Source: Acutalibacteraceae bacterium (GTDB taxonomy: Bacteria > Bacillota > Clostridia > Oscillospirales > Acutalibacteraceae). From it: DNA of 38,972 bases. Numbering within the stretch: the first letter of the stretch is position 1; each line of letters begins with the position of its first letter. Shown in pieces: positions 1 to 17,468 of the stretch. The DNA lies in contig JAZSCC010000106.1 of NCBI GenBank assembly GCA_045602685.1, positions 1-38,972 on the forward strand, written 5' to 3'. A model generated the notes under the pieces. That model saw nothing but the letters and a program-made list of their open reading frames with translations, made no database searches and was not told the DNA's origin. The translations under genes and the position numbers were made by a program.

Positions 1-432
1 TATGCTATGGCGAATCCACTCATCAATGGCACCCTCGGTTGTATCACCGCCGCAAAGATGAAACACCGGCGTCCGTGTATTCCCTGCCGCTATTGCAATA
101 GCCAAGGTTTCATATCGGTCGCCGAGAAGCACGACTGCATCAAACTTTTCGTTCAAGAATAGTTCTGTAAATTTTTCCAAAGCGACAGCTTGATTTTTGG
201 AAATATCAGCTTCACTGTCAGAGGTCACGGGAATTACTATTTCAAAATCAATTCTGTTATTGTCTGAAATGATTTCCTGCTTTGTAAAACCGTATTGTTC
301 ACTCAGATGTGTTCCTGTGACAATAAGAGACACCTTAAAACTATTGTCTTCATATTTTCTGAGTTCGCGAATCAGTTGCGACAAAAGACCGTATTCGGCC
401 CTCGTTGCAGTTACGATTGCTACATTTTTCAT
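1..432 (-). CDS. neuC: UDP/GDP-N-acetylglucosamine 2-epimerase (hydrolysing), NeuC/LegG family. The 3' end is cut by the window edge.
   Basis: My minus-strand translation from the ATG at 432 reads MKNVAIVTATRAEYGLLSQLIRELRK...LLGDRYETLAIAIAAGNTRTPVFHLCGGDTTEGAIDEWIRHSI, a typical hydrolysing 2-epimerase N-terminus. The frame is open to position 1. The ATG overlaps the neuB stop codon (ATGA at 429-432). Confidence 0.85.
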   Translation of the reverse strand, partial: MKNVAIVTATRAEYGLLSQLIRELRKYEDNSFKVSLIVTGTHLSEQYGFTKQEIISDNNRIDFEIVIPVTSDSEADISKNQAVALEKFTELFLNEKFDAVVLLGDRYETLAIAIAAGNTRTPVFHLCGGDTTEGAIDEWIRHSI

Positions 433-1424
433 AGTTCTATCATCTCGTCTTCCGTAAAATCGCGAATGGCTTTTTCCCCGATAACTTCAGCCCACCGCAT
501 CGGAGAAATTCCGTTGCCCGGACGTTTTGTTGTTATATTTTCTTCGGTGAAAATCTCACCTTTTTTAATGTGCTTTTTAGCCACAATGCTTTTCCTTGCA
601 ACAGACTTATTGCCTTTTTCGGAATCGGTCACTCTTTTTTCGCTGTTCCCCAATGCAACTTCAATATGTCTTATGGCATCAACCATATTTTTAAGCTCAT
701 TGGGTTCAAGGCTTGCTTTATGGTCAGGACCTTCCATTGTTTTATCCAAGGTAAAATGCTTTTCGATTACCTCTGCCCCTAAAGCCACCGCTGCAACAGG
801 AACTTCTGTTCCGTTTGTATGGTCAGAATAACCGACCTTAACATCATATCTTTCTTTAAGAGTATTCATTGCCAAAAGATTTACATCTTCGTAAGGCGTG
901 GGATACTGAGTATTACAATGAAGCAACGTTATCTCATCACATCCGTTGGTTTTGAGAAGTTTTATTGCCTCATCAATTTCATTAAGTTCACTCATTCCGG
1001 TTGACAAAACAACCGGCTTGCCGGTTTTTGCAATTTCAACAAGGTACGGATAGTTGGTAATTTCCCCCGATGGAACCTTCCAAAACCTGACAAGGTTACT
1101 CAAAAAATGTATACTTTCTATATCAAAAGGTGTAGAAAGAAACTCTATACCAACTTCTTTACAATAGTCCGACAATTCCAAAAACGCTTCATTAGGCAAG
1201 AGCAGTTTAGACAGCATCTCCTTTTGAGATTCTGTCTTGCCGATATTTTTCTTTTGATATTCCGCCATTTCGGCAAATTGAGAAACTAAAGAAGAAAGCT
1301 TTGCCGTTTGAAACTTAACAATATCTGCACCTGCAGTTTTAGCGGCTCTAATCAAGGCCTTTGCTGTTTCTATATCACCGTTGTGATTGACGCCGGCTTC
1401 GGCTATAATTAATGTTTTATTCAT
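429..1424 (-). CDS. neuB: Nonulosonic acid synthase, NeuB family (N-acetylneuraminate/legionaminic acid synthase; LegI-like role inferred)
   Basis: 331 aa. The N-terminus IIAEAGVNHNGDIETAKALIRAAKTAGADIVKFQT is the NeuB signature. The C-terminal region (KSIVAKKHIKKGEIFTEENITTKRPGNGISP) looks like a SAF domain. Confidence 0.92.
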   Translation of the reverse strand: MNKTLIIAEAGVNHNGDIETAKALIRAAKTAGADIVKFQTAKLSSLVSQFAEMAEYQKKNIGKTESQKEMLSKLLLPNEAFLELSDYCKEVGIEFLSTPFDIESIHFLSNLVRFWKVPSGEITNYPYLVEIAKTGKPVVLSTGMSELNEIDEAIKLLKTNGCDEITLLHCNTQYPTPYEDVNLLAMNTLKERYDVKVGYSDHTNGTEVPVAAVALGAEVIEKHFTLDKTMEGPDHKASLEPNELKNMVDAIRHIEVALGNSEKRVTDSEKGNKSVARKSIVAKKHIKKGEIFTEENITTKRPGNGISPMRWAEVIGEKAIRDFTEDEMIEL

Positions 1425-2052
1425 CCTTTTGCCTTCTTATCACTGTCAGTTTGTTTTTAACAATAACAGAATTCTCTATATTTTCGGTTATAAGTGCTCC
1501 TGCAGCAACAATTGAATCGTTACCTATTGAAAGATTCTGAAGAACCGTGGAATTGGCGCCGACAAAACAGCCCGAACCGACACTGACCGTTCCGCATAAC
1601 ACCGCACCTACGGCAATGTGGGTAAACTCTCCGACTACACATTCATGCTCTATTAAAGCTTTAGTATTGACAATTGCCATTTTACCGATTTTTGCCTCGG
1701 TATTAACAACCGCCAGTTTTCCTACAAAAGTACCTTCCCCTATTTCGGCAGTTTCACTAACCACTGCCGACGGGTCAATTATTACGGGCAGTGTATATCC
1801 TATTGCCTTTAATTCAGAATATATATTTTGTCTGATTCTGCCTTTTCCGAGATAACCGATACATATTGCCGCATTTTTTACGCCTTTTTTAAAGAAATCC
1901 TTTAAAACTCCGTCATTTCCCAAATAGGCATATTTACTCACGTGTTCTTTAATATCTGTATATCCGATTATTCGGTATTTGCCCTGTCTTTCAATACAAT
2001 CAGCCATGCTTTTAGCATGCCCACCGTATCCGACCAAAATCAAATCTTCCAT
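1417..2052 (-). CDS. Hexapeptide-repeat sugar N/O-acetyltransferase, NeuD/PglD family (LegH-like role inferred)
   Basis: The N-terminal Rossmann-like segment LILVGYGGHAKS is followed by left-handed beta-helix repeats (IGEGTFVG...IGKMAIVN...VGSGCFVGANSTV). I prefer the start at M25 (MEDLILVG, ATG at 2052). The longer ORF to 2124 would overlap the upstream gene by about 70 nt. Confidence 0.85.
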   Translation of the reverse strand: MEDLILVGYGGHAKSMADCIERQGKYRIIGYTDIKEHVSKYAYLGNDGVLKDFFKKGVKNAAICIGYLGKGRIRQNIYSELKAIGYTLPVIIDPSAVVSETAEIGEGTFVGKLAVVNTEAKIGKMAIVNTKALIEHECVVGEFTHIAVGAVLCGTVSVGSGCFVGANSTVLQNLSIGNDSIVAAGALITENIENSVIVKNKLTVIRRQKDE

Positions 2053-2056
2053 CTTT

Positions 2057-3097
2057 TTATTCTCCGTACAATCTAATACGCATTTTTTCAAGTTCCTCGA
2101 GCTGTCCCATATCAAGCCAATCATTTTGGCTCACAGGGTATGCCGCAACCTTACGGCCTTTTTTCTTCTGAAGCTCTATAATTTCCGGGAAGCCTATGGG
2201 AACATCTCCTTCAATATCAGCCAAAACTTCAGGCTCCACCACATACATTCCGGTATTCGTCTGGAAAGAAAACTCAGGCTTTTCCTTCATAGCCGTAATC
2301 TCGCCATTTTCACCCGTTTCAATTACACCGTAAGGAATAGTCACGGTTTTATATGCGCAAACCATGGTTACCGCGTTATGATTTTCTTTGTGGAAACGGA
2401 GAATATCATCATAATCAGCCATAATCATGATATCACAGTTAGTTAAGAAGAAGGTTTTATCAACCGAGCCCTTGAGCATAGAAAGTCCGCCTCCGGTTCC
2501 GAGCGGTTTAGGCTCGTCATACCAAAACGTGTTGTATGTACGCTCATTTTCCGAAAAATATGCTTTAATTAACTGCTTTTTATGATTTACGATAAGATGA
2601 AAATCATTGCAATTGTATTTTGCAAAGTGTTGCATAATATGCTCGATAACCGGTAGGTCACCGACCGGAATTAACGGTTTGGGGAGAATTTTTGTATACG
2701 GCTCAAGCCGTGTTCCTTTACCGCCTGCCATAATGACAACCGGAATGTCCAAACTCGGATATTCTGCTTCATTTTTTTCGTTCGGGAAAACAACGTCCTT
2801 TACCGTGCCGTCTGCCAAGACAACCGGCACAGAGGCATAATGTAAGTTTTCAATAAGCGATATTGCCTGTTCCCGACTACTTGCTACTTGCGGATTTTTA
2901 AACATAGCAAGAGCGACGCTCATATCCATTGTTCCGCCTGATAAAAGATACCGGCGAAGGTCACCGTCAGATAAAGAACCGAGCAATTTATTGTTTTTTG
3001 TAACAAACAGTATTTTCTTGGCAGTCTCATCAAGTTGCTTCATTGCATCCCTTACGCACTTATCACAATCGATGCAATATTTTTGAAAATCATTCAT
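2057..3097 (-). CDS. CBS-domain nucleotidyltransferase (PtmE-like sugar-1-phosphate guanylyl/nucleotidyltransferase)
   Basis: 346 aa. The N-terminal CBS pair (LFVTKNNKLLGSLSDGDLRRYL; VPVVLADGTVKDVV) precedes the NTP-transferase motif VIMAGGKGTRLEPYTKILPKPLIPV. This architecture matches the GDP-GlcNAc-forming enzyme of the legionaminic acid pathway. Confidence 0.8.
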   Translation of the reverse strand: MNDFQKYCIDCDKCVRDAMKQLDETAKKILFVTKNNKLLGSLSDGDLRRYLLSGGTMDMSVALAMFKNPQVASSREQAISLIENLHYASVPVVLADGTVKDVVFPNEKNEAEYPSLDIPVVIMAGGKGTRLEPYTKILPKPLIPVGDLPVIEHIMQHFAKYNCNDFHLIVNHKKQLIKAYFSENERTYNTFWYDEPKPLGTGGGLSMLKGSVDKTFFLTNCDIMIMADYDDILRFHKENHNAVTMVCAYKTVTIPYGVIETGENGEITAMKEKPEFSFQTNTGMYVVEPEVLADIEGDVPIGFPEIIELQKKKGRKVAAYPVSQNDWLDMGQLEELEKMRIRLYGE

Positions 3098-4263
3098 TTT
3101 ACTTCTTCCTTAATGCATTTTATAACCGTGTCAACGTCTTCTTCGGTAAGATTGGTACTGCACGGAACATTTACAATGTGGTTATGATAATACTTTGCCT
3201 TTTCAATTTTGTATGTTCGGCTGTTTTCATACGGCTTTTGTTCGTGAATAAGTCCCCAAATAGGTCTGCATTGAATTTTTTTATCATTTAAGCAGGTTAT
3301 CATTTTATCCCTGTCAAGCGGATACGGAGAATCGCAGAAAACAGAATAGAACCAACAATTACTGCGAATGCCGTCTCTGAAGCCAAGCATACTCAAGCCG
3401 TCAATTTGAGGGATTTGTTTTAAATAATGCTCATAATTACGCCTTTTTATTTCAATAAAGCCCTCAAGCTGTTCCATTTGAGCAAGACCAAGCGCAGCTT
3501 GAAGATTTGTAAGCCGATAATTATATCCTATTTCATCATGGACAAAATAAAGTACATCGGCTTTGGCTTGAGTTGTAAGGTGCTTTGCTTTGGCAAGCAG
3601 GTCCTCATTATGAGACACCATCATTCCGCCGCCGCCCGTTGTAATGATTTTATTACCGTTGAAGGAATAAACTCCTATGTCACCGATTGTTCCTGCAAAT
3701 CGGTTGGCGTAAACGCCTTTTGTATATTTTGTGCCCAACGCTTCGGTAGAATCCTCAACAACCTTAAAGCAGTATTCTTTTGCAAGTGACATGATTTTTT
3801 CCATGTCAGCCATATTACCGAAAACGTGGACAACAACAATTGCCGGAATTTTTTTACCTGTTGTACTGTGATACAGTGCATTATCGCGCACTTCACATTC
3901 TTCTTTTAAGAATTGTTCAAGCTTAACAGGGTCCATACAGAGCGAATCGTCACAATCCATAAAGACAGGTTCTGCGCCGATATACTTTACGGGGTTTACT
4001 GCCGCAATAAAAGTAAGTGTCGGAACAAGCACCATATCTTCTTTTGTAACACTGCATAGCATAAGTGCAATGTGGAGTCCCGACGTACCGCTTTGACAGG
4101 CGACCGCACCGGGAGTACCTACATAATCTGCGACACTTTTTTCAAAATCCGAAACGTAAGTACCGACGGTTGACACCCACTCAGTCTCAACCGCATGGGT
4201 TACATATTGAAGCTCATTTCCTTTAAGATTGGGAACTGACAATGGAATGAATTTGTTTTCCAT
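3094..4263 (-). CDS. DegT/DnrJ/EryC1/StrS-family PLP-dependent sugar aminotransferase (LegC/PglE-like)
   Basis: 389 aa with family-typical segments: IPLSVPNLKGNELQYV, ACQSGTSGLHIAL and GVYSFNGNKIITTGGGGMMV (the lysine in NGNK would be the PLP lysine). Its stop overlaps the downstream start (ATGA at 3094-3097). Confidence 0.9.
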   Translation of the reverse strand: MENKFIPLSVPNLKGNELQYVTHAVETEWVSTVGTYVSDFEKSVADYVGTPGAVACQSGTSGLHIALMLCSVTKEDMVLVPTLTFIAAVNPVKYIGAEPVFMDCDDSLCMDPVKLEQFLKEECEVRDNALYHSTTGKKIPAIVVVHVFGNMADMEKIMSLAKEYCFKVVEDSTEALGTKYTKGVYANRFAGTIGDIGVYSFNGNKIITTGGGGMMVSHNEDLLAKAKHLTTQAKADVLYFVHDEIGYNYRLTNLQAALGLAQMEQLEGFIEIKRRNYEHYLKQIPQIDGLSMLGFRDGIRSNCWFYSVFCDSPYPLDRDKMITCLNDKKIQCRPIWGLIHEQKPYENSRTYKIEKAKYYHNHIVNVPCSTNLTEEDVDTVIKCIKEEVK

Positions 4264-4283: not shown

Positions 4284-5264
4284 TTACAAGTTATAAATAT
4301 CAGGCTTATACTGCTCAAGATTTTCACGCAAGAAAGCAATGGTCTCTGCAATACCTTCTTCAAATGTGTATTTGGGTTTCCAATTAGTCAAACGCATAAT
4401 TTTTTCGTTACTGCCGAGCAAACGGTTGACTTCACTTTTTTCGGGACGAAGCCTTTGCTCGTCACAAATGATTCTCGCATTGGGGTTAATTTGACGAATA
4501 AGCTCGTTTGCAAGGTCGCCAATTGAAATTTCTTTTTGTGTAGCAATATTAATTTCCTCTCCGATTGTTTTGTCGGAAAGATATATTTCACAAAATCCGT
4601 TTGCGGTATCCTTAACATAGTTAAAATCTCTTGTCGGGGTAAGAGAGCCTAATTTGATTTCCTCTTTACCTGACAAAAGCTGTGTGATAATCGTAGGAAT
4701 TACAGCACGTGCAGACTGACGGGGGCCAAAGGTGTTAAACGGACGGACAATCGTTACCGGTACTGAGAAGCTACGGTAAAAAGACTCCGCAAGTCTATCC
4801 GCACCGATTTTGGTTGCAGAATACGGAGACTGTCCCTGAAATGGATGCTTTTCATCAATAGGAACGTATTGTGCAGTACCGTATACCTCTGACGTTGAAG
4901 TTACCAATACTCTGCCTGTCCCCAAATCACGTGCCGCTTGAAGCACATTCAAGGTGCCTTTAATATTTGTATCAACATATGTATCCGGCGAATGATAACT
5001 GAAAGGAATGGCAATTAATGCAGCCAAATGGAACACTGCATCGCAACCGCGCATTGCTTCTCGCACACCGTTAGGGTCACGAACATCGCCCGAAAAAACC
5101 TCAACGTTTTTAAGTATCTCCTTAGGCAGTGTATCCAACCATCCCCAAGTATTAAAAGAGTTATAAAATGAGAATGCTCTTACCTCGTATCCTCTTCTCA
5201 CAAGTTCCTCTGTCAAGTGGCTTCCTATAAATCCGTCTGCTCCGGTCACAAGAATTTTAGCCAT
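4284..5264 (-). CDS. NAD-dependent nucleotide-sugar 4,6-dehydratase/epimerase, extended SDR (LegB-like role inferred)
   Basis: GxxGxxG motif ILVTGADGFIGSHL and catalytic YxxxK in SPYSATKIGAD. The start is taken at MAKILVTG (ATG at 5264, GGGAG upstream). It overlaps the upstream stop by 8 nt. Confidence 0.88.
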   Translation of the reverse strand: MAKILVTGADGFIGSHLTEELVRRGYEVRAFSFYNSFNTWGWLDTLPKEILKNVEVFSGDVRDPNGVREAMRGCDAVFHLAALIAIPFSYHSPDTYVDTNIKGTLNVLQAARDLGTGRVLVTSTSEVYGTAQYVPIDEKHPFQGQSPYSATKIGADRLAESFYRSFSVPVTIVRPFNTFGPRQSARAVIPTIITQLLSGKEEIKLGSLTPTRDFNYVKDTANGFCEIYLSDKTIGEEINIATQKEISIGDLANELIRQINPNARIICDEQRLRPEKSEVNRLLGSNEKIMRLTNWKPKYTFEEGIAETIAFLRENLEQYKPDIYNL

Positions 5265-6654
5265 TTTTCTTTTCTCCCATCTCATTGAAAATTTTTATTA
5301 AGGTATCGCAAATTAAAGAAATATTTTCATTATTCAAATACTTTGATGAAGTAAAATAAATTCCGCCGGGATATATGTTAGAAATATATTCGCACAGATA
5401 CTGCAAAATATCCTCCTTTGCTGCACCCTTATTTTCTTCACGGTATGCGCCAAAGGCCTCGTCAATCTTATAAACACCGGGAGCATTATCAAAATAGATA
5501 CTTCCGCCGATATAGACCGGTTTTCCAAGTATCATTGCTTCCCAACCTGCTGTACCGGTCAAAGTGGTAATTGCCTGTGCGCCCTTAATTAAGGACACTG
5601 ACGGTACCCACGGGGAAAGCATACGGACATTCGGATATTTTTTTAATTGCTTATAAAAATCGTACGGTCTGTGTCCGACAAGTGCATAATGTTCTTTCAC
5701 AAAAAGCACTGTATCGGCCGGAAGACTTTTTGCCCACGAATCTATATAGAAAATCTGCTTTTCATATTTTGGCGCACATACAAGAGTCGATGCCTCAGGC
5801 TGATAATGTAACGGAAAGTAAACATATTTTTCATCAGGCACTTTATTTAAATAGAACTTTTTACATCTGATGTACTTAAAAAAGAACATAAACTGACTAA
5901 ACTCTCTGCGGTAAGCGCGATAATTAATCAAATCATATTTATCGTGACAGCTTTTGTCAAAATACATTTTCACGCTTCTTGCGAGTTGTCTTAAATTCAG
6001 TTTAGGCTTACTTTGAACAAGCGCCATTGACTTAGGTTTATCATAATTGTCAAAATAACGGTTATATATTTCTTCTGCTTTTTGGCAGATGTCCTCAGAG
6101 TAAGTTTTTGTTTTATAATCCTCATCGAAGCCGTATTGATACTGCAACGGTTCTGTAACAACATAGAAGTTGGTAGTATCAGCCCCTCTTGCCGCCATTA
6201 AGGCAACATACTTTACACCGTAATGCTTAGCAACAAGATATGCAATATACGACTGTGCAGTAGCTATCGTCTCGTCAAAATAGATATTATAATCGCCAAT
6301 ACTGAAAATACTGTCGTAAAATCCGAACATACCACATACAAAACCAATTATTTCCTCATACGAACGGTTTACGAGGAAACGGTCCATATAAATATATTTC
6401 CAAACAGGAGAGGCGTCAAACTTTTTTTCATATTCGCTGAGTTTACCCCTTGAAGCCTCATTCCAATGCTCCTTTATAAAGCCGGGCATATAGCGTAAGT
6501 CGGGGTTAGTTACATTTGACTGTACAACCATTGCATCTTTTTTTGTACATACAACAAACGTGCCTTTAATATCAGAATCCCGACCGTTAAGCTCTTTAAA
6601 TATGAGCGAGCTTGCTTTATCATACGCCGGTCTTGCATTAAAGCATATCTTCAT
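5257..6654 (-). CDS. Capsule-biosynthesis-type (KpsS/LpsZ-like) putative glycosyltransferase; candidate nonulosonic acid transferase
   Basis: 465 aa, soluble. The segment YVYFPLHYQPEASTLVCAP and the C-terminal half (TGTAGWEAMILGKPV) look like a GT-B fold and resemble the capsule polysaccharide biosynthesis family. The family assignment is from memory and is not verified. Confidence 0.5.
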   Translation of the reverse strand: MKICFNARPAYDKASSLIFKELNGRDSDIKGTFVVCTKKDAMVVQSNVTNPDLRYMPGFIKEHWNEASRGKLSEYEKKFDASPVWKYIYMDRFLVNRSYEEIIGFVCGMFGFYDSIFSIGDYNIYFDETIATAQSYIAYLVAKHYGVKYVALMAARGADTTNFYVVTEPLQYQYGFDEDYKTKTYSEDICQKAEEIYNRYFDNYDKPKSMALVQSKPKLNLRQLARSVKMYFDKSCHDKYDLINYRAYRREFSQFMFFFKYIRCKKFYLNKVPDEKYVYFPLHYQPEASTLVCAPKYEKQIFYIDSWAKSLPADTVLFVKEHYALVGHRPYDFYKQLKKYPNVRMLSPWVPSVSLIKGAQAITTLTGTAGWEAMILGKPVYIGGSIYFDNAPGVYKIDEAFGAYREENKGAAKEDILQYLCEYISNIYPGGIYFTSSKYLNNENISLICDTLIKIFNEMGEKKNG

Positions 6655-6688: not shown

Positions 6689-8128
6689 TTATCTTTCATT
6701 TAAAAGCTTTCGTATCTTTTTAAAATAAATCAAAAGCATAACAACTGTAAACACTGCCCCTGAGATTATAAGCTTAAGCCACCAATCAAGTGAAACTGTG
6801 TCTGCCAATTTCATAATAATAATTGCTATCGCAACAGGTATGACACTATTTGAGAGACATTTAAACAAACTGCACTTTGACAGCTTGGTCATTGACACTG
6901 CCAGCATAACTCCGTAAAGTGCATATGAAAGAGTTGTGCCATAGGCCACGTTTTCTATTTGCTCGCCGAAAATAACAACAAACCCTGCCGAAAACACTAC
7001 ATTAAAGACACATAAAATAACTGTATTTCTCAAAAGAAGAACGTTCTTCTTAATTATGGTAAACACATTGCCAAAAAGCATTGAAGAACTGTAAACGGCA
7101 ACACCCATAACAAGAATTTGTGCAGACTGTACGCCTTGTGAATACTGTGGCATTACCAACGATATAAACGGCGGAAGAATGTAGTACCCGCCGATACAGA
7201 CAATACTGGTTACAATACTTAAGGCAAAGGTGTAAACGTTAACCTTTTGTATCATACTTGAGGTGTCCTGTTGACTGCCGTACTGCTGTGCCATTTTAAC
7301 ATAAAACACCGAGGAAAAAGACTGAGGAATAAGCACAAGCGTGCTGAAACCTATGAGTGCAACACTGTATATTCCAAGCTCAGTATATGACATAAATCCG
7401 AGAATCACGAATTTATCAATAGACATCATCATTGTCCAGACAAGACTGTTTATTAAAAGCAAAATTCCGCTTTTAATTAAACTTGATATCTGTTTTGAAT
7501 CCCATACCGGTTTTACCGAGGAAAAATATTTAAAGTATGTAACAACACAGGCAATTAATGACACACCCACTGCAACAAGCAATCCGTAATAGCCAAGCTT
7601 TGGCACAATAAGTAATCCGCACACTGCAAGTGCCCCTGTTTTTACAGCAAGCGAAAGTGACGGGAATTTAAAATGTCCTTCCGATTTCAATGTGTTTTCC
7701 CAAAAGCTGCAAATAATTGTCAAAATGGCAAGAAATGCATTAACAACAAAACCGACATATAGCATGGTATTTATATGCCCTAATTGCCAAATTATTGTCA
7801 AAACCGCTGTCATAATCAATACAACGGCCATATAAATTACATACAGAAAAGTGAACACCGCACTTTTCATATGCGAGGCTTCATCCAACCTCTTTGCGCC
7901 CAAAAGTTGAGGATAATCACGGCTATATGCACTCAACACGCCGAGTTGAAGATAATTCATATACAAAAGCAGCATATTGGCAGTTGTATAAATACCGTAT
8001 TCGTACGGCGGAACATATCTTTTGGTTATGATATTATACACATAGGATATCATATGGCAAATTATCGAGGTTGCAGATATAATCAAATAACTTGATTTGC
8101 CGCTGTTTTTAAACAATTTTTTTAACAT
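6689..8128 (-). CDS. wzx: Wzx-type oligosaccharide flippase (MOP/polysaccharide biosynthesis protein family)
   Basis: 479 aa and highly hydrophobic, with about 12-14 predicted TM segments. Its position inside a glycan locus is typical for this family. Confidence 0.8.
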   Translation of the reverse strand: MLKKLFKNSGKSSYLIISATSIICHMISYVYNIITKRYVPPYEYGIYTTANMLLLYMNYLQLGVLSAYSRDYPQLLGAKRLDEASHMKSAVFTFLYVIYMAVVLIMTAVLTIIWQLGHINTMLYVGFVVNAFLAILTIICSFWENTLKSEGHFKFPSLSLAVKTGALAVCGLLIVPKLGYYGLLVAVGVSLIACVVTYFKYFSSVKPVWDSKQISSLIKSGILLLINSLVWTMMMSIDKFVILGFMSYTELGIYSVALIGFSTLVLIPQSFSSVFYVKMAQQYGSQQDTSSMIQKVNVYTFALSIVTSIVCIGGYYILPPFISLVMPQYSQGVQSAQILVMGVAVYSSSMLFGNVFTIIKKNVLLLRNTVILCVFNVVFSAGFVVIFGEQIENVAYGTTLSYALYGVMLAVSMTKLSKCSLFKCLSNSVIPVAIAIIIMKLADTVSLDWWLKLIISGAVFTVVMLLIYFKKIRKLLNER

Positions 8129-8131
8129 CGT

Positions 8132-9139
8132 TTAACGTTCTTTCTTTTTCAGCATTGCGGTAAGACTTGCACCGGAATCCATCCCGAGCACCTTTTTAAT
8201 GGTTTTTCCGAGTTTTCTTTTGAAACGTTCCTTAAAAGGATAAAGAGTGATTTTGCCGATTTTCTTTTCATAAACAGAATCAAGCTTTACTTCTTCGGGG
8301 TGCTTCAGCGGAAATGTCATCGGAACCGACGGCATACCGCAAAACCTCTTAGTCATTTCATTCTGGAGACTTGTTCCACCGTGCGTTGACAGCTCATCAG
8401 CGCCAATATTTGCAATTTGGTTATTGCAGGGCGATATACCGAACATTCCGTTAGAACGAACGGAATACTCCATTTGAAAATCCCAAGACGATTTATTGAT
8501 ATCGTTATCTACCAGATACTTGGTTTTTAAAATCGCATCCAACATTTGATTACGTAACGGAATATTTTTAAATTCACGGCAGTTATAAGTTTCCTTATAC
8601 CTGGCCATTTTTTTATCGTCATCTAAAGTTTTAAGTTCTGAATCATAGTGTTTTAAATATTTATCCGACCACGATGCCCAACCGCAAGGAAGCATATGTC
8701 TTGTAAACATATAGCTGTATTCAGAAGGATATTCGGCAAGATAGTTAGTACCGCAAATCCAGAGAATTCTGTCATCGGTTTTATATTTTTCCAAAAGTTC
8801 TTCGCAGAACGGGAAAAACGTAATTTCGGGCAGGTTATCGTCTTCAATAAAAATTGCTTTTTCTTCCTGTTCCAAAACCCATTTGGCACCTAAACCGATA
8901 TTTCTCAAAACACCGAGATTTTCATCGGAATAATGATGTATAAGCTCACAATCCCAGGTTATAAGCCTTTCTGCCTCCTTACGGCACTTGTCAGTCTCTG
9001 CTTTTTCCTGTTCATTCCTCGGCCCGTCGGCCAAAATGTACATTTTTTCGGGTTTGACCTCAGCAATTCGTCCTATAATGCGCTCAAGAGTATCGTATCT
9101 TTTGAAAACAAACAACACAACAGGTATTTTAAATCCCAT
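8132..9139 (-). CDS. GT-A fold glycosyltransferase (GNT-I/HlpA-like)
   Basis: The N-terminus IPVVLFVFKRYDTLERIIGRI...MYILADGPRN and the DxD-like motif IFIEDDNLPE fit a GT-A fold. I prefer the ATG at 9139 (MGFKIPVV), which has AAGGA 7 nt upstream, over the GTG at 9157. Confidence 0.7.
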   Translation of the reverse strand: MGFKIPVVLFVFKRYDTLERIIGRIAEVKPEKMYILADGPRNEQEKAETDKCRKEAERLITWDCELIHHYSDENLGVLRNIGLGAKWVLEQEEKAIFIEDDNLPEITFFPFCEELLEKYKTDDRILWICGTNYLAEYPSEYSYMFTRHMLPCGWASWSDKYLKHYDSELKTLDDDKKMARYKETYNCREFKNIPLRNQMLDAILKTKYLVDNDINKSSWDFQMEYSVRSNGMFGISPCNNQIANIGADELSTHGGTSLQNEMTKRFCGMPSVPMTFPLKHPEEVKLDSVYEKKIGKITLYPFKERFKRKLGKTIKKVLGMDSGASLTAMLKKKER

Positions 9140-9173
9140 TTTTATATCCTTTCTCACTTCCGATAAGTGCGAT

Positions 9174-11263: not shown

Positions 11264-12700
11264 TTACCCCTTTGCATGTTCCAAAATCAAATCAAAAATT
11301 TCAGTCATTTCATATCTTCTCGGCTCAAGGGTTATATTATGACCGAAAAGTACCGCCGTTCTCCAACGGTGCCCGCCGGGAGACATTGTATACATAAGGC
11401 CGACGTTATTATCAATAAGTTTTTCGCCTAATTCCCACTCACCGCCATAGCGTTCATCCATTTGGAATATGATTTCGGGATATTTATCTAAAAACTCACC
11501 GTGATAAAAAGTATTGGTACGGACAATCCACTCAAAAAGCGGTTTGTCTTCACCTTCAATTTTAAACTGCCTGAGATATTCGATAATTTCATCAGCTTTT
11601 TTATCTTTATCCTCAACACTCTCGCTAAGACGTATTCCGCCATAACTGTAATTTTTCAAAGCAGATAAATCACTCAAAAAAGCTACTGTTTTATCCCAAT
11701 CGAAATCCGCACCCGAGGCAAACAAATTTTTCCAGACCGGAAATTTTCTTGCTATCTTCATTGCCCACTTTGGAATTCCCACCTTTTTAACAAAGGTAAC
11801 AGCAAAAGTCTTAATACGCTTTTTGAGGCTTTTTTTACTGCTTGAACTATTTGGCTTTTTAGGCGCTAAATATCCACCCCGTTTAAGCATTTCGTTGATT
11901 CTTGCAATATAAACCGGTCTTGCACCGTGACCGTGGTCACTCATAACAATAATTGGTGTTTTGGGATACATCTGCATAATTTCTCCGAGGCACTCATCCA
12001 TTTTGATATACATATCCCGAATAACATTTTCGTGCTCATTAATACCCGGATAGTTTGGATGATTGGTGTCACAGTGACGCCAAAAATCGTGTTGGATACC
12101 GTCGGTTGTTGAAAAATATGAAAACAGAACATCGGTGCTTTCATTTTCCAAGGCAAGCTTTGTAAGACGCCATTCCTCAGCCTGCTTTGAGAAAAACTCA
12201 TCACGAAGCTTGGGCAGAGCCGTCTCTGCAGTAAACTTACTTTCAGTACCGAGTATGTCACATCTCGGCCGATAAAGCTTTTCCTTTTCTTTTGGATAAA
12301 CAAACATTTTCCCGTCAATCGGGCGGGTTATCATAAGTCCGTTTATATCCCAGCCTTTTTTTATATTCATAGGCAAAAGAACCGTACAGGACAAGCCTGA
12401 TTCGTTAAGAATTTCCCAAAACGCCCTGCCGTAAAATACGGAATCATCAAAGGAAAACGGTTTATATGTATTGTTCTTGGCGCCGACATTAACGAAATTA
12501 ATAATGCCGTGCTGTGTAGGGTCAAGACCTGTATAGATAGTTGCCCAAGCGGGAGTAGTATCGGCCGGAAAAACCGAACGGAGTGTCGTATCGGGATTAC
12601 TTGACATCATCCTTGTTATGTTTGGAAGATACTCTTTATATCTTGCAATAACATCGGCATCCATGCCGTCTATACCGATTATAATAAGTTTTTTAATCAT
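11264..12700 (-). CDS. Alkaline-phosphatase superfamily enzyme, type I phosphodiesterase/nucleotide pyrophosphatase (NPP)-like, cytoplasmic
   Basis: 478 aa with no signal peptide. The metal-site Asp lies in IIIGIDGMDADV. The nucleophile-Thr region FPADTTPAWATIYTGLDPTQHG parallels the NPP motif (PT.TFPNH..IVTG..P..HG). The distal metal motif is VMSDHGHG. Confidence 0.75.
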   Translation of the reverse strand: MIKKLIIIGIDGMDADVIARYKEYLPNITRMMSSNPDTTLRSVFPADTTPAWATIYTGLDPTQHGIINFVNVGAKNNTYKPFSFDDSVFYGRAFWEILNESGLSCTVLLPMNIKKGWDINGLMITRPIDGKMFVYPKEKEKLYRPRCDILGTESKFTAETALPKLRDEFFSKQAEEWRLTKLALENESTDVLFSYFSTTDGIQHDFWRHCDTNHPNYPGINEHENVIRDMYIKMDECLGEIMQMYPKTPIIVMSDHGHGARPVYIARINEMLKRGGYLAPKKPNSSSSKKSLKKRIKTFAVTFVKKVGIPKWAMKIARKFPVWKNLFASGADFDWDKTVAFLSDLSALKNYSYGGIRLSESVEDKDKKADEIIEYLRQFKIEGEDKPLFEWIVRTNTFYHGEFLDKYPEIIFQMDERYGGEWELGEKLIDNNVGLMYTMSPGGHRWRTAVLFGHNITLEPRRYEMTEIFDLILEHAKG

Positions 12701-13397
12701 TTAAAATTTCCTTTTTATTCAGGTTGTCGTTAAGTACTGAATTAATAGCATCCATTACCTCTTTAAGCATTTTATCTTTATCCTGTGCGCCCGATATTGT
12801 CACCGTTGGGTACATTTTAGAAATGGTGTCATACAACGGCTCGCGAATTTCAAGGTAAAGAGGGTCGGGAATGTCATCCTTTCTTGAACAGCAAATCTCA
12901 ACCGGTGTTTTTATGTACACAATCAGGTCGGGCTTGGGTGCTTTCTTCCACTTTACGGAAATAGTTTGTTTCATATACTCCTCACCTAACCCTAAATTAG
13001 CGGCATAAGTAACGGCGTTATCGTATATATATCGGTCTACAAGCAAGGTTGTGCCAAAAAAATGCTTAAGTTTTACATACCAAAAAATCTGAAGTTTAAA
13101 TTCCAAAGTTGTAAAGAAAGAAAACAGCTTATATGTTGCACCTTGGTTGCCTGCCTGCTTTCTCATATTTTCGAGGTATGCTTTATAATCTCCGCCATAA
13201 GGATTGCTGTCCTTCTTCATAAGAAGCTTTTTCCCAAGCTTTATTGGCAGAGAAAGTATTTTTATAACATATGCCGCACGAACAATTTTTACCTTTATAC
13301 CCCGGCCTTTAAGTTGCTCATAAGCATAGTCAATGCTTGTGGATTTCCCCGAACCGTCAAGGCCCATAAAGCATATAATCGGTTTTTTCTTTTTCAT
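12693..13397 (-). CDS. P-loop kinase-like protein, thymidylate kinase (Tmk)-like fold with an insertion
   Basis: The P-loop ICFMGLDGSGKST matches the Tmk G-x-DG-x-GKST motif. A DRY-like motif occurs in LLVDRYIYDNAVTYAAN. About 60-80 aa of partly hydrophobic sequence is inserted between the two. Its stop overlaps the downstream start by 8 nt. Confidence 0.65.
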   Translation of the reverse strand: MKKKKPIICFMGLDGSGKSTSIDYAYEQLKGRGIKVKIVRAAYVIKILSLPIKLGKKLLMKKDSNPYGGDYKAYLENMRKQAGNQGATYKLFSFFTTLEFKLQIFWYVKLKHFFGTTLLVDRYIYDNAVTYAANLGLGEEYMKQTISVKWKKAPKPDLIVYIKTPVEICCSRKDDIPDPLYLEIREPLYDTISKMYPTVTISGAQDKDKMLKEVMDAINSVLNDNLNKKEILND

Positions 13398-13414
13398 ATT
13401 ATCAACCTTGCAAT

Positions 13415-14362
13415 TTATATTTTTGACAGCATATCAATTGCTGCCATATTCCAGGTTTTCGGATTTTTCAAGAAAGAGGCGTACTGTTTGCTTTTTGATG
13501 CTTCGAGCAAAACATCGCTTAAATCATTAATGCCATCAGCAAAAAAGACTCCGCCACTGACTGCAGGAATATTTTTGATTTTTTCGAAATCCTTATATGC
13601 AACAACCGGTGTGCCGCAAGAGAGCGCTTCCATTGCGGAAAGCGGAACGCTTATAACAAACTCTCCCGACTTTGTGGGGAACAGATACACATCCGCCATG
13701 CGATAATAGTCCTCAATATTTTCAACATAGCCGTTTATTTGTCTGACAGAGGCTTTGGTAAGCTCCTCTCGAACCGTTGTGTTCTCAAACATACCGCTTG
13801 TGACAATTATTCTTTCAAATTTATCTTTGTCTAATTTGCAAAAATCCTCAAGACCTCTGCCAACAGAACAGTGACCTACGTGAAGAACAACCTTTTTATC
13901 CTTTGGTACGTTATATTTTTCAAACAAGGCGTTACGCTCATCTTCAAAAACGGGTGAAAACTTTTCACTGTTTATTCCAACCTCAAGGTAGTGAAGCTTA
14001 CATTCCTTTGCCAGAACTATTTCTTCTGAGTCCTCTTTGCAAAGCGCAAAATAATCACACCTTAACGGATGCTTTTTAATTTTTGCTATAAAAGAAGCAT
14101 CCGGCTTCTGAACAGTGACAAGGCAGGTTTTACGGCTTAGCGCACTTATAAGACGAATAACGGGATAGGTTTTTTCGTTCAGTCTTACGAAAACAAACGT
14201 TGCATCGCACTTTAATGAATTACGAATAATAGAAAATGCGTTCTTAAGTCCCGAATAAAAAACTGTATTTTCTTTGGAAAATTCTTTCGCCATATGGGTT
14301 GCTATATTACGCATACCCTCATTTTGTTGACCGTTAACGGTACTTACTATATGTATCTTCAT
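13415..14362 (-). CDS. GT-B glycosyltransferase (GT4-like)
   Basis: The C-terminal region LFPTKSGEFVISVPLSAMEALSCGTPVVAY is typical of retaining GT-B enzymes. The ATG at 14362 shares one base with the radical SAM stop codon (TGATG). An alternative GTG start lies at 14365. Confidence 0.75.
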   Translation of the reverse strand: MKIHIVSTVNGQQNEGMRNIATHMAKEFSKENTVFYSGLKNAFSIIRNSLKCDATFVFVRLNEKTYPVIRLISALSRKTCLVTVQKPDASFIAKIKKHPLRCDYFALCKEDSEEIVLAKECKLHYLEVGINSEKFSPVFEDERNALFEKYNVPKDKKVVLHVGHCSVGRGLEDFCKLDKDKFERIIVTSGMFENTTVREELTKASVRQINGYVENIEDYYRMADVYLFPTKSGEFVISVPLSAMEALSCGTPVVAYKDFEKIKNIPAVSGGVFFADGINDLSDVLLEASKSKQYASFLKNPKTWNMAAIDMLSKI

Positions 14363-15819
14363 CACTTTTTAAACACCGATTTGCTCAAGCGTCCAAACGC
14401 TTTAAGCGAACGCTTTAAATCTTCAAAATCCGTAAGTCCCTTTTTAATACGATGCATAATATACCAAGGGCGAAGATAATATTTCTTTCTGGCCATAGCG
14501 CAGAAATCAACCAGCTCCTGAGGAGAAATCTCAGGCGTTTTTATAATGCAGTTGAGCGTGCCGTCCTCTTGGCAATACTCGTCATATTTGCCATTTATAT
14601 AGCCGTTCGAAAGCGCCCAATTATACGCCTCGGTTCCGGGATACGGAATAAGCGGGAAAAACTGTGCCGTATCTGTCTTAAAACGCAATGCGGCATTCAA
14701 AGTGTCCTGCATTGTCTGCTTGGTTTCTCCGCAGTTTCCAACCATATAGCACGCATGAACCATAAGCCCGGCCTTTTTTGCATTAGCCATATATTCTTCA
14801 ATCTGCTCAACCGTTGTTCCCTTTTTTATGTTATTGAGAATGGTTTGATTAAAGCTTTCTACCCCCGGAATAATGAGGTGGCATCCCGCTTTCTTCATAA
14901 GCTTCATTGTTTCAAGGTCCAGATTTACGCGGGCGTTGCAAAGCCATCTGATTTTTATTTTTTTATCAATCAGCATTTGACAAATTAAAATTGTTCTCTC
15001 TTTATTGACCGTGAAAGTATCGTCTTCAATGACGATTTCTTTGACAAAAGGCATATTTTTATAAACATATTCAAACTCTCCGACAACGTTTTCTACACTG
15101 CGGAGTCTGTATTTATGCCCATGCATTGTTTGCGGATAAACACAGAAATTACATCTTGCAGGACAACCGCGTCCTGTGAAAATCTGAACCGAAGGAAATG
15201 CCGCCGCTGCAAAGAAATAATCGTGAACATCCAAATTTTCGTTAATAAACTGTGTTGCATACGGAATAGAGTCAAGGTCTACTATGTAATCGGCATCGGG
15301 ATTATCGATAATGTTTCCTTTTTCATCACGGTAAGAAAGCCCTTTGACAGAGGATAAGTCTTGCCCATCACGAAGCGCAACTGCAAGGTCACGGACAATA
15401 TAATCGTACTCTTTTCTTGCCACACCGTCAATTTTATCACTTATATTAAGCGTTTCATTCACCGTAGCTGTAGGATGTGTTCCTACAAGAAGAACAAAAG
15501 CATCCTGATATTTTTCTTTGAGTTTTGCACCGAAAGCAACATCGCTATAGATAGAGGGAGTGCTGGTATCCAAAACAAAAAGCTTAGAATCAGATGCTTT
15601 TTCATCAATAATTTTCAAAGTTTCATCAACATTAGTTCTTTTAGCGCAAGCATCATAAAACTCAATATCTAATCCGCTTTCTCTTGTAACAAGAGCAGAA
15701 TAAATAAGCCAAAGAGGATAATAAAGAACACCGCTATGCCCTATAGACGGACTGCGGGACTCTCTTGAAAACTTACCGTATTCTGTTTTAAACGGCGGAT
15801 TAATAAACGTAACCTTCAT
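14362..15819 (-). CDS. B12-binding-domain radical SAM enzyme (class B)
   Basis: 485 aa. The N-terminal Rossmann-like domain (KLFVLDTSTPSIY...VLLVGTHPT) is typical of a cobalamin-binding domain. It is followed by the CxxxCxxC cluster motif in FTGRGCPARCNFCVYPQ and a TIM-barrel-type radical SAM core (IIPGVESFNQ). Confidence 0.85.
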   Translation of the reverse strand: MKVTFINPPFKTEYGKFSRESRSPSIGHSGVLYYPLWLIYSALVTRESGLDIEFYDACAKRTNVDETLKIIDEKASDSKLFVLDTSTPSIYSDVAFGAKLKEKYQDAFVLLVGTHPTATVNETLNISDKIDGVARKEYDYIVRDLAVALRDGQDLSSVKGLSYRDEKGNIIDNPDADYIVDLDSIPYATQFINENLDVHDYFFAAAAFPSVQIFTGRGCPARCNFCVYPQTMHGHKYRLRSVENVVGEFEYVYKNMPFVKEIVIEDDTFTVNKERTILICQMLIDKKIKIRWLCNARVNLDLETMKLMKKAGCHLIIPGVESFNQTILNNIKKGTTVEQIEEYMANAKKAGLMVHACYMVGNCGETKQTMQDTLNAALRFKTDTAQFFPLIPYPGTEAYNWALSNGYINGKYDEYCQEDGTLNCIIKTPEISPQELVDFCAMARKKYYLRPWYIMHRIKKGLTDFEDLKRSLKAFGRLSKSVFKK

Positions 15820-15846: not shown

Positions 15847-16614
15847 TTAGATTTTACTTTTACTTATTCTCTTTCTTTTGGTAATACTGTGTATGGAATA
15901 TCTCAGCATCAACATTAATGCACTTAATTTACAGTAACCGTATGCATGATATGTATTGAACGTCATTTTAGCAGACTTCAGCCGTCCGCTTGATTTTGAA
16001 TTTGACGACAACCGATATATAAGCATAGGCTCATTCAGCCCATATGCATATTTATGCTCCTTCAGCACCTTTAACCAAATATAATAATCCTCGTGCATTT
16101 GGTCACCCGGCATTTTAAGAGCCTTCATAACATCCGCTTTTATCATAACCGACGAGCATGACAAAAGATTACGCTTTAAAAGAGTAGAAAAATCGGTTTT
16201 TTCCTCGGCCTCCATTACATACCCGAAAGAGTTCCCGTTTTCATCAATAAAGGCAGATGCCGTATAGCTTATGACCGCACCTTCAATCTTTTCCAATAAT
16301 GCAAGCTGTTTCTCAAGCTTATCCTCACGCCACATATCATCACTGTCAAGAAATGCTATCCACTTACCAGCTGCACGGCTAATGCCGTAATTACGAGTTG
16401 CCGAGACACCTGAATTCTTCTCGTTTTGCAGTAAAACTATTCTGTCATCACTTTCGGCATATGACTTTATAAGCTCCTGTGTATTGTCATTAGAGCAATC
16501 GTCTATAACTATCAGTTCAAAATCCTTATAGGTCTGTTTTAACACTGAACCTATTGCGCTATCTATTGTTTTTGCCGCATTATATGCAGGCATTATTACA
16601 CTTATTTGAGGCAT
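15847..16614 (-). CDS. Family 2 glycosyltransferase
   Basis: ISVIMPAYNAAKTIDSAIGSVLKQTYKDFELIVIDDCSND and FLDSDD (DxD) are canonical GT2 motifs. Confidence 0.9.
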   Translation of the reverse strand: MPQISVIMPAYNAAKTIDSAIGSVLKQTYKDFELIVIDDCSNDNTQELIKSYAESDDRIVLLQNEKNSGVSATRNYGISRAAGKWIAFLDSDDMWREDKLEKQLALLEKIEGAVISYTASAFIDENGNSFGYVMEAEEKTDFSTLLKRNLLSCSSVMIKADVMKALKMPGDQMHEDYYIWLKVLKEHKYAYGLNEPMLIYRLSSNSKSSGRLKSAKMTFNTYHAYGYCKLSALMLMLRYSIHSITKRKRISKSKI

Positions 16615-16625
16615 ATTGTCCTCCT

Positions 16626-17468
16626 TTATACGCTTTTTAATATGCTTTCCTTGGTTTTAGCAACACAATATTCAAAACCAAAATCCTCGGTATCGGAATA
16701 AACAAGTGTCCCAAATGCTTTACGGAAAATACCGGCAAAGGGTGAGCACAATTTAACTAAAAATCCGAGAAACGAGCTTATATAAAGCTTTTTTCCCATT
16801 TTTTCTGCAACGGTTTTTGCCATTTCACTTGTGTTTATATACTCTTTATTTTGAGGAAAATATAAACCGCTTAAATTTCTGTCAATACACATTTTTACAA
16901 AAGAAATAAGATTATCAATATAAATCATACTTCGTTTATTATTTACCTTTGGAAAAACGGGAGACTTTTTTACAATTTTTAAAATGCTGACAAAATTCCC
17001 TTTACAGTCTTTTCCGTATACCATCGGAGGCCTTACCGTAACAACCGAAAAACTTTCATCGGCAAGTGCGGCAATTTTTGTTTCGGCTTCAAATTTGGAT
17101 TTTCCGTAATTACTTGTGGGCTTAGGAAGGGTGTCCTTGGTTATAACACCGGTAACCATTCCGTAAACACTCATAGAACTTAGAAAAATAAACTGACGGA
17201 CTCCCTCTTTTTTTGCTTTTTCGGCAGTTTCTATTGCCATATCACGGTTGATTTTATAATAAAGCTCACTGTTTACCTCTTTTTCCTTTTTGTGAGCAAT
17301 CCCGGCAACGTGAAAAACGACATCATACTGCGAAAAATCCTTTTCACGCCATGTGCCGTCAATCATATCCACCGTATCTACTAAATATAGGTCATCACGA
17401 CTTTTTAAAAATTTTTCAAACGAAACGCCTATATAGCTGTTTGCACCCGTGACCAATATTTTTTTCAT
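16626..17468 (-). CDS. NAD-dependent epimerase/dehydratase-family SDR (nucleotide-sugar epimerase or reductase)
   Basis: Glycine-rich motif ILVTGANSYIG and YxxxK in SNYGKSKFEAE. 280 aa. It is coupled to the upstream phosphoglycosyl transferase by an ATGA overlap at 17465-17468. Confidence 0.8.
   Translation of the reverse strand: MKKILVTGANSYIGVSFEKFLKSRDDLYLVDTVDMIDGTWREKDFSQYDVVFHVAGIAHKKEKEVNSELYYKINRDMAIETAEKAKKEGVRQFIFLSSMSVYGMVTGVITKDTLPKPTSNYGKSKFEAETKIAALADESFSVVTVRPPMVYGKDCKGNFVSILKIVKKSPVFPKVNNKRSMIYIDNLISFVKMCIDRNLSGLYFPQNKEYINTSEMAKTVAEKMGKKLYISSFLGFLVKLCSPFAGIFRKAFGTLVYSDTEDFGFEYCVAKTKESILKSV

Follow-up and report, generated by a model that had tools for sequence, protein, structure and literature searches.

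Contig JAZSCC010000106.1 from an Acutalibacteraceae bacterium (GenBank assembly GCA_045602685.1) carries, at positions 5257-6654, a gene that a first-pass annotation of the DNA had proposed as a candidate legionaminic acid transferase. We refer to it as gene X, and to the whole contig of 38,972 nucleotides, C106 of a metagenome-assembled genome (MAG; 1.28 Mb in 248 contigs, 74% complete), as the window. Legionaminic acid (Leg) is a bacterial sialic acid mimic present on capsules, O-antigens, S-layers, flagella and spores, and to our knowledge dedicated Leg transferases have barely been characterised.

Gene X is an uninterrupted open reading frame of 465 codons that exists on the minus strand only, the plus strand across the same interval carrying many stops. 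It begins with an ATG at 6654 preceded by a good ribosome-binding site (GAGGAAG), and its TAA stop (5259-5257) overlaps the ATG of the dehydratase gene legB (5264-5262) by exactly 8 nucleotides, ATGGCTAA. No hydrophobic segment was found in protein X, which is therefore considered soluble. A Wzx-type flippase gene lies directly upstream, and downstream follow legB, legC, ptmE, legH, legI and legG, genes for synthesis of a nonulosonic acid. The frame and its length, the overlap, the soluble product, the segment FPLHYQPE (residues 280-287) and the position between flippase and nonulosonate genes are all as first annotated, and the strand can now be specified as minus. The genes in question are the following.

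6689-8128, minus strand: Wzx-type flippase, directly upstream of gene X (Polysacc_synt_3; 8 hydrophobic stretches).
5257-6654, minus strand: gene X, candidate CMP-legionaminic acid transferase, 465 residues, soluble, KpsS-like (PF05159) and two-domain (open reading frame, Pfam, AlphaFold2 model, fold and hhalign).
4284-5264, minus strand: legB, NAD-dependent 4,6-dehydratase (TIGR04180, 518 bits against a cutoff of 475).
3094-4263, minus strand: legC aminotransferase (TIGR04181, 479 bits against a cutoff of 420).
2057-3097, minus strand: PtmE-like protein with CBS and sugar-1-phosphate nucleotidyltransferase domains (Pfam CBS and NTP_transferase).
1417-2124, minus strand: legH, NeuD-family N-acetyltransferase (TIGR03570, 185 bits, above cutoff).
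429-1424, minus strand: legI, NeuB-family nonulosonate synthase (TIGR03569, 499.5 bits, above cutoff; PF03102).
1-432, minus strand: legG, NeuC-type hydrolysing 2-epimerase, N-terminal 144 residues (TIGR03568 model positions 1-141, above cutoff).

Protein X belongs to the capsule-synthesis family that it had been thought to resemble. A hidden Markov model search gave a match to PF05159 (Capsule_synth) of 32.1 bits against a gathering cutoff of 20 (E = 1.1e-7) that spans only residues 305-395, and precomputed annotation places the same tag on nearly all homologues of X; no NCBIfam model matched. Searched as a single sequence against the PDB with phmmer, X returned only marginal matches to KpsC (E about 0.05). 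With a family profile of 42 homologues, KpsC chains were again the only matches (3e-4).

A structure model obtained with AlphaFold2 from the 42-homologue alignment (predicted local distance difference test 89.4, predicted template modelling score 0.88) supports the proposed glycosyltransferase (GT)-B-like C-terminal half. Foldseek placed generic GT-B epimerases and transferases at the head of its list, at low template modelling scores. In an exhaustive VIA structure search over 48,161 chains, which was independent of Foldseek, rank 1 went to the C-terminal module of KpsC (KpsC-C, 6mgd; Z 15.5, root-mean-square deviation [rmsd] 4.0, 262 residues aligned), followed by WbbB of family GT99 (Z 15.0), the N-terminal module of KpsC (KpsC-N, Z 14.6) and KrkA of GT140 (Z 12.6). 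These four matches have rmsd values of 4.0-5.0 across 262-294 residues; generic GT-B enzymes come next, with Z of at most 12.3 and rmsd of about 9. [quoted passage not shown] Thus, the comparison with KpsC/KpsS structures suggested in the first-pass annotation places X nearest to these enzymes, and its model has the modified GT-B fold of the retaining ulosonic acid transferase superfamily (GT99/GT107/GT118/GT140).

Catalytic positions were located by comparing, with hhalign, a profile of 139 relatives of X at 20-40% identity with KpsS and KpsC from E. coli CFT073. The comparison gave a probability of 96.6% for KpsS (E = 6.5e-10, 334 columns), 97.7% for KpsC-N and 95.9% for KpsC-C. Three motifs of X fall opposite functional elements of these proteins.

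5794-5808, minus strand: HxxxE (codons His283-Tyr-Gln-Pro-Glu287), opposite the QxxxD nucleophile motif of KpsS and KpsC (HMMER and hhalign).
5689-5697, minus strand: KEH-Y (codons Lys320-Glu321-His322), opposite the K-x-H-P 'HP motif' (alignments).
5539-5565, minus strand: TLTGTAGWE (codons Thr364-Glu372), nucleotide-binding loop/helix (alignments to KpsS and KpsC).

In the first of these, His283 stands opposite the Gln and Glu287 opposite the Asp of QxxxD (Q233/D237 in KpsS, Q484/D488 in KpsC-C), and a HMMER alignment to T. dismutans KpsC-C (6mgd) yields the same placement. In KpsC and WbbB, this Asp acts as covalent nucleophile (PMC10148158). Glu287 is invariant in all 139 relatives, and position 283 is His in 120 of them and Gln in 13; the otherwise invariant QxxxD of retaining ulosonic acid transferases thus keeps its carboxylate in X, but as Glu rather than Asp. 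His322 falls opposite the HP-motif His (H275 in KpsS, H194 and H522 in KpsC), which protonates the CMP phosphate in Kdo transferases (PMC10148158). It is present in 138/139 relatives and is followed by Tyr in X and by Pro in 62/139. The spacing between Glu287 and His322 is 35 residues, compared with 34 between Asp160 and His194 in KpsC-N, and Gly327-His-Arg lies opposite the GHR of KpsS. The nucleotide-binding loop reads TLTGTAGWE in X, TINSTAGIS in KpsS and VVTSQYGFE in KpsC; G370 and E372 are near-invariant, the latter occurring in 138/139 relatives. The CMP-binding pocket that the first-pass annotation had proposed to look for is therefore represented by motifs that appear conserved by alignment.

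Sequence conservation is distributed unevenly over the protein. Among close homologues, median identity is 68% in residues 271-400 and 42% in the N-terminal domain, and among distant homologues it is 41% in the C-terminal domain and 19% in the N-terminal domain. A conserved C-terminal and a variable N-terminal domain fit a fixed CMP-sugar donor and a variable acceptor, as in KpsC (PMC10148158).

Homologues of X are named 'export protein' or 'hypothetical', and an old annotation reads 'capsular polysaccharide export protein, LipB/KpsS family'. Such names would suit a nonulosonate-modifying or export-associated protein that keeps the fold and is no transferase. We consider this very improbable, since the 'export' name is older than the proof of Kdo transfer by KpsS and KpsC (PMC10148158, PMC4487303), invariant residues occupy the catalytic positions, and X lacks a membrane segment.

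Leg linkages described so far are mostly alpha, which would fit a second alternative, in which X is a nonulosonate transferase that works by an inverting, sialyltransferase-like single displacement, gives alpha-Leg without a covalent intermediate on Glu287, and has in common with the Kdo transferases only the HP-type His and the CMP pocket. Several observations favour this alternative or tell against a retaining mechanism for X. The canonical QxxxD is altered to HxxxE, and the motif equivalences come from sequence and profile alignment rather than from superposed coordinates. The hhalign alignment shows no Glu opposite Glu66, the general base of KpsC, although E76, D91 and E128 of X, conserved to varying degrees, are candidates for this role. 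With QxxxD replaced and no general-base Glu in the alignment, X may not follow the mechanism of the Kdo enzymes. Moreover, the HP motif also occurs in inverting CMP-sialic acid enzymes (PMC10148158). Nevertheless, we regard an inverting X as doubtful. A carboxylate is found at the nucleophile position in 139/139 relatives, in the VIA search the model lies nearest to four chains of retaining ulosonic acid transferases, with the polysialyltransferase 5wc6 further away (Z 9.4), and KpsS1 of Acinetobacter baumannii, from the same Pfam family, is retaining (as cited in PMC12887879).

Gene linkage connects X to nonulosonate synthesis well beyond the window. A scan of species-representative genomes supplied 42 loci, and in 27 of these legB (80-88% identical to the window copy) lies within about 3 kb after X; at least two Leg or other nonulosonate pathway genes occur in the available flank of 30/42. 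Most related loci also have Wzx upstream of X, and many Lachnospiraceae and other Clostridia have the gene order wzx-X-legB-legC-ptmE. Linked loci come from Pseudobutyrivibrio, Butyrivibrio, Hungatella, Blautia, Eubacterium, Anaerovoracaceae and other Bacillota, but many of the 42 are from Pseudobutyrivibrio and are therefore not independent. An exhaustive homologue search returned 8,831 clusters (50% identity) at E ≤ 1e-3, including 994 at E ≤ 1e-30. All four distant representatives examined (23-26% identity) have NeuB and CTP_transf_3 genes within 8 kb in modules of varied composition; the cluster names of ten distant representatives were uninformative on function. The linkage to neuB and neuC homologues raised in the first-pass annotation thus takes the form of a tight association with Leg/NeuB genes in close and distant relatives alike. 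Among other sampled genomes of the same class, 0/299 have gene X at 1e-10, a rarity typical of surface-glycan loci. A blastn search of legB-legC against complete E. coli genomes, in which a Leg O-antigen comparator was sought, gave no match.

The left edge of the window cuts through legG. The end of another contig of the same MAG, C93 (L003), and the start of the window have 17 nucleotides plus the peptide IRHSI in common; the two contigs are adjacent, and legG is split between them. The last ~13 nucleotides of C93 diverge from the window, and hence the assembly broke at this point. The remainder of the gene was located as follows.

Contig C93 (L003) 16488-17246: legG remainder (TIGR03568 model positions 137-363).

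The gene order on C93 is this remainder, legF, a gene for a polytopic Wzy_C-like protein, FnlA/B/C-like genes for UDP-N-acetyl-L-fucosamine (UDP-L-FucNAc) and an NTP_transf_5 gene. For LegF, the CMP-nonulosonate synthetase, the PseF model gives 195 bits, slightly short of its cutoff of 205.7. The Leg pathway complement comprises LegB, LegC, the acetyltransferase, LegG, LegI, LegF and the PtmE-like candidate glucosamine-1-phosphate guanylyltransferase, and with the legG remainder and legF on C93 the pathway is therefore complete. LegF, at the contig junction, is encoded by the only CTP_transf_3 gene in the MAG, and the assembled part of the genome accordingly gives no sign of a second CMP-sugar. 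SpoVAD, also on C93, indicates that the organism is an endospore-forming Firmicute.

The first-pass annotation had found no classic sialyltransferase-like or Maf-like gene, and had named a sialyltransferase-family gene just past the left edge as an outcome that would count against X. We examined C93 and found neither such a gene nor any other candidate transferase family there. X itself does not match GT38, GT42, GT52, GT80 or Maf (PF07388, PF06002, PF07922, PF11477, PF01973). The same models gave nothing convincing in the 74%-complete MAG, the searches for GT42, GT52 and GT80 being made without a positive control, and the reported absence accordingly holds for the window and for the MAG as searched. 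The two matches below cutoff, to polysialyltransferase and Maf/MptE elsewhere in the MAG, came from a WecB epimerase and a thiamin pyrophosphokinase. The other transferase genes in the window (two GT2, two GT4 and one HlpA-like) are not co-conserved with the leg module.

Nonetheless, X could be KpsS-like and use a different donor, such as another CMP-activated or phosphate-activated unit, or have an SpsB-like role, with Leg being moved by another enzyme. Candidates for the latter are the GT2 and GT4 proteins, the HlpA-like protein of 341 residues, or a gene missing from the MAG. Five other transferase-like genes in the locus, together with genes for a phosphodiesterase, a kinase-like protein and a radical SAM enzyme, leave room for such a division of labour. 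The incompleteness of the MAG and the sialyltransferase searches that lacked controls count in the same direction, away from Leg transfer by X. So do three loci (L030, L037 and L039) with no nonulosonate genes within 10 kb of the X relative, and a report that deletion of spsB in Bacillus subtilis leaves Leg on the spore surface (PMC7439481), where SpsB is thus dispensable for this modification. We nevertheless judge it unlikely that X has another donor or role. GT2 and GT4 enzymes use nucleoside diphosphate sugars as donors and, unlike X, none of those in the window travels with the leg module. Two further exceptional loci (L007 and L010) have a CMP-sugar synthetase directly after X as their sole nonulosonate-type gene, and all five exceptional genomes contain a NeuB-family match somewhere (strong in three and weak in two). 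The position of all four distant relatives beside NeuB and the single CTP_transf_3 gene of the MAG likewise favour a nonulosonate donor.

The first-pass proposal of a candidate Leg transferase is thus supported by the family, fold, motif equivalence and gene linkage of X and by the lack of a rival sialyltransferase gene, and from these we infer its donor, acceptor, mechanism and stereochemistry. We assign a probability of roughly two-thirds to the reading that X transfers Leg from CMP-legionaminic acid, belongs to the KpsS-like superfamily of ulosonic acid transferases and operates as follows. X would be a cytoplasmic, soluble glycosyltransferase of the KpsS/KpsC/WbbB type whose donor is CMP-legionaminic acid, or an N-acyl variant, supplied by a co-transcribed legB-legC-ptmE-legH-legI-legG-legF module. 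It would add the nonulosonate to a repeat unit linked to undecaprenyl diphosphate before the neighbouring Wzx flips this unit. The conserved C-terminal Rossmann domain is predicted to bind CMP through His322 and Thr364-Glu372, and the variable N-terminal domain to pick the acceptor. Judged from KpsC and WbbB, X would probably work by double displacement, forming a covalent bond between sugar and enzyme with Glu287 as the nucleophile instead of Asp; such a mechanism would retain configuration and give beta-linked Leg.

What stands less well is the implied novelty of this proposal, which is smaller than it seemed. The same idea was already published in 2014-15 for PF05159 proteins, namely Gtr59, KpsS1 and KpsS2 (PMC4487303), and KpsS1 is the GT118 enzyme cited in PMC12887879. 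The mildly novel element is the consistent HxxxE signature across a very large clade. Tentatively, this clade of roughly 470-residue proteins with P-L-[HQ]-x-x-P-E and K-E-H motifs, which counts the 994 clusters above and thousands of more distant ones, could constitute a distinct nonulosonic acid glycosyltransferase family that uses Glu as covalent nucleophile, where Kdo transferases use Asp, and makes beta-legionaminyl linkages. If so, X would offer the family a tractable prototype from a Gram-positive organism and might find use in chemoenzymatic Leg glycosylation.

As of 2020, no enzyme had been reported to transfer Leg to cell surfaces (PMC7439481). X offers a well-defined candidate, with a high-confidence model, specific residues (Glu287, His283 and His322) and a large family whose linkage to nonulosonate modules is consistent in gut and rumen Clostridia. 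Its activity, if demonstrated, would give a function to thousands of proteins now called 'hypothetical' or 'KpsS-family export', and would bear on whether ulosonic acid transferases that act by double displacement can work with Glu in place of the Asp nucleophile.

Several other features of these loci were observed. Across Clostridia families (L004-L044), legB is 80-88% identical to the window copy. For X, next to it, the figure is only 37-45%, and in Pseudobutyrivibrio legI and legF are down to about 40%. This gives the leg module a mosaic look, with legB either unusually constrained or recently exchanged. The cytidylyltransferase genes that follow the X homologue at 3393-4100 of L007 and 6470-7195 of L010 belong to two Clostridia MAGs with weak NeuB-family matches, and the L010 locus also contains two GFO_IDH_MocA oxidoreductases; these organisms may use a different CMP-activated sugar.

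On C93, directly after legF, a polytopic protein of 421 residues is encoded on the minus strand (L003 14359-15624). It has at least 7 hydrophobic stretches and a weak Wzy_C match (22.4 bits, below the cutoff of 31.7), and is a candidate Wzy polymerase or ligase. Downstream of this gene are the FnlA/FnlB/FnlC-like genes (Polysacc_synt_2, Epimerase plus Polysacc_synt_C, and Epimerase_2) and NTP_transf_5 (L003 9728-13295), whose sequences suggest L-FucNAc as another component of the same glycan.

Within the window, the soluble 341-residue protein (8132-9157, minus strand) has no Pfam, NCBIfam or PDB sequence match, yet over 1,400 homologues from different phyla are 50-60% identical to it, and some sources call these 'glycosyltransferase family 2' or 'hemolytic protein HlpA'; it represents a well-conserved family outside Pfam coverage. 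As a rival transferase it was set aside, since it occurs alongside X in only 1/42 loci and its family carries the GT2/HlpA name. At 11264-15819, also on the minus strand, are genes for a protein of the type I phosphodiesterase/alkaline phosphatase superfamily, a P-loop kinase-like protein, a truncated-looking GT4 and a 485-residue radical SAM enzyme. None of these was found in the related loci, and their products may add an unusual phospho- or alkyl substituent to the glycan.

Among known systems, WbbB (GT99) and KrkA (GT140) resemble X in their unusual GT-B-derived fold (Z 15.0 and 12.6) and in a common logic of Asp nucleophile, His and carboxylate base, but have no detectable sequence similarity to it and belong to different CAZy families. 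SpsB of B. subtilis, one of two control genomes with a PF05159 match, is probably a relative; by description it likewise comes from a Firmicute, lies beside a Leg pathway (the sps operon) and has TagB/HP motifs.

The transferases TFUB4_00887 (for a Leg derivative) and Tanf_01245 (for a pseudaminic acid [Pse] derivative) of Tannerella forsythia have genetic evidence for nonulosonate transfer (PMC5420450). As described, these proteins of 442-445 residues are like X in their predicted two-domain GT-B-like architecture, HP motif, conserved C-terminal and variable N-terminal halves, and location beside a CMP-Leg/Pse locus. Unlike X, they serve protein O-glycosylation in a Bacteroidete and, by description, resemble TagB and contain DXD and D/E-D/E-G motifs.

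KpsS and KpsC of E. coli are retaining beta-Kdo transferases of GT107 that act on group 2 capsules. They have PF05159 in common with X, are homologous to it over nearly the full length (hhalign 96-98%), and include the nearest solved folds (KpsC, Z 14.6-15.5). The K-x-H motif, the GHR (in KpsS) and a T/S-x-x-G-x-E nucleotide loop are common to all, as are a CMP-activated 2-keto-3-deoxy acid donor, presumed for X, and an adjacent CMP-sugar synthetase. However, identity is only about 15-17% (about 17% to KpsS), X is about 50-140 residues longer per module, HxxxE stands for QxxxD, and Tyr takes the place of the HP-motif Pro. The donor is presumably a 9-carbon diamino sugar for X and is Kdo for the E. 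coli enzymes, and X lies in a Wzx/Wzy-type context in a spore-forming Firmicute, in contrast to an ABC-transporter capsule (kpsMT/DE) with a phosphatidylglycerol anchor. With neither the group 2 capsule context nor close similarity, X falls outside GT107 proper.

The nearest precedent is in A. baumannii, where Kenyon et al. (2015) credited the PF05159 proteins Gtr59, KpsS1 and KpsS2 with the transfer of acinetaminic, legionaminic and pseudaminic acids because their genes always lie beside a nonulosonate module (PMC4487303). Aci5Ac7Ac was the sugar assigned to Gtr59, which in KL63 was taken to carry out beta-(2->6) transfer of Leg, and a beta-Leg linkage was argued to need a retaining enzyme (PMC4487303). 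KpsS1 was subsequently shown in vitro to be a retaining Pse5Ac7Ac transferase and founded GT118, as cited in PMC12887879. Its donor is Pse, whereas that of X would be Leg, and it is reported to be 30% identical to KpsS, compared with about 17% for X; by these identities to KpsS, X probably lies outside GT118 proper. Like KpsS1, KpsS2 and Gtr59, however, X is a PF05159 protein whose gene adjoins a module for nonulosonate synthesis within a Wzx/Wzy locus.

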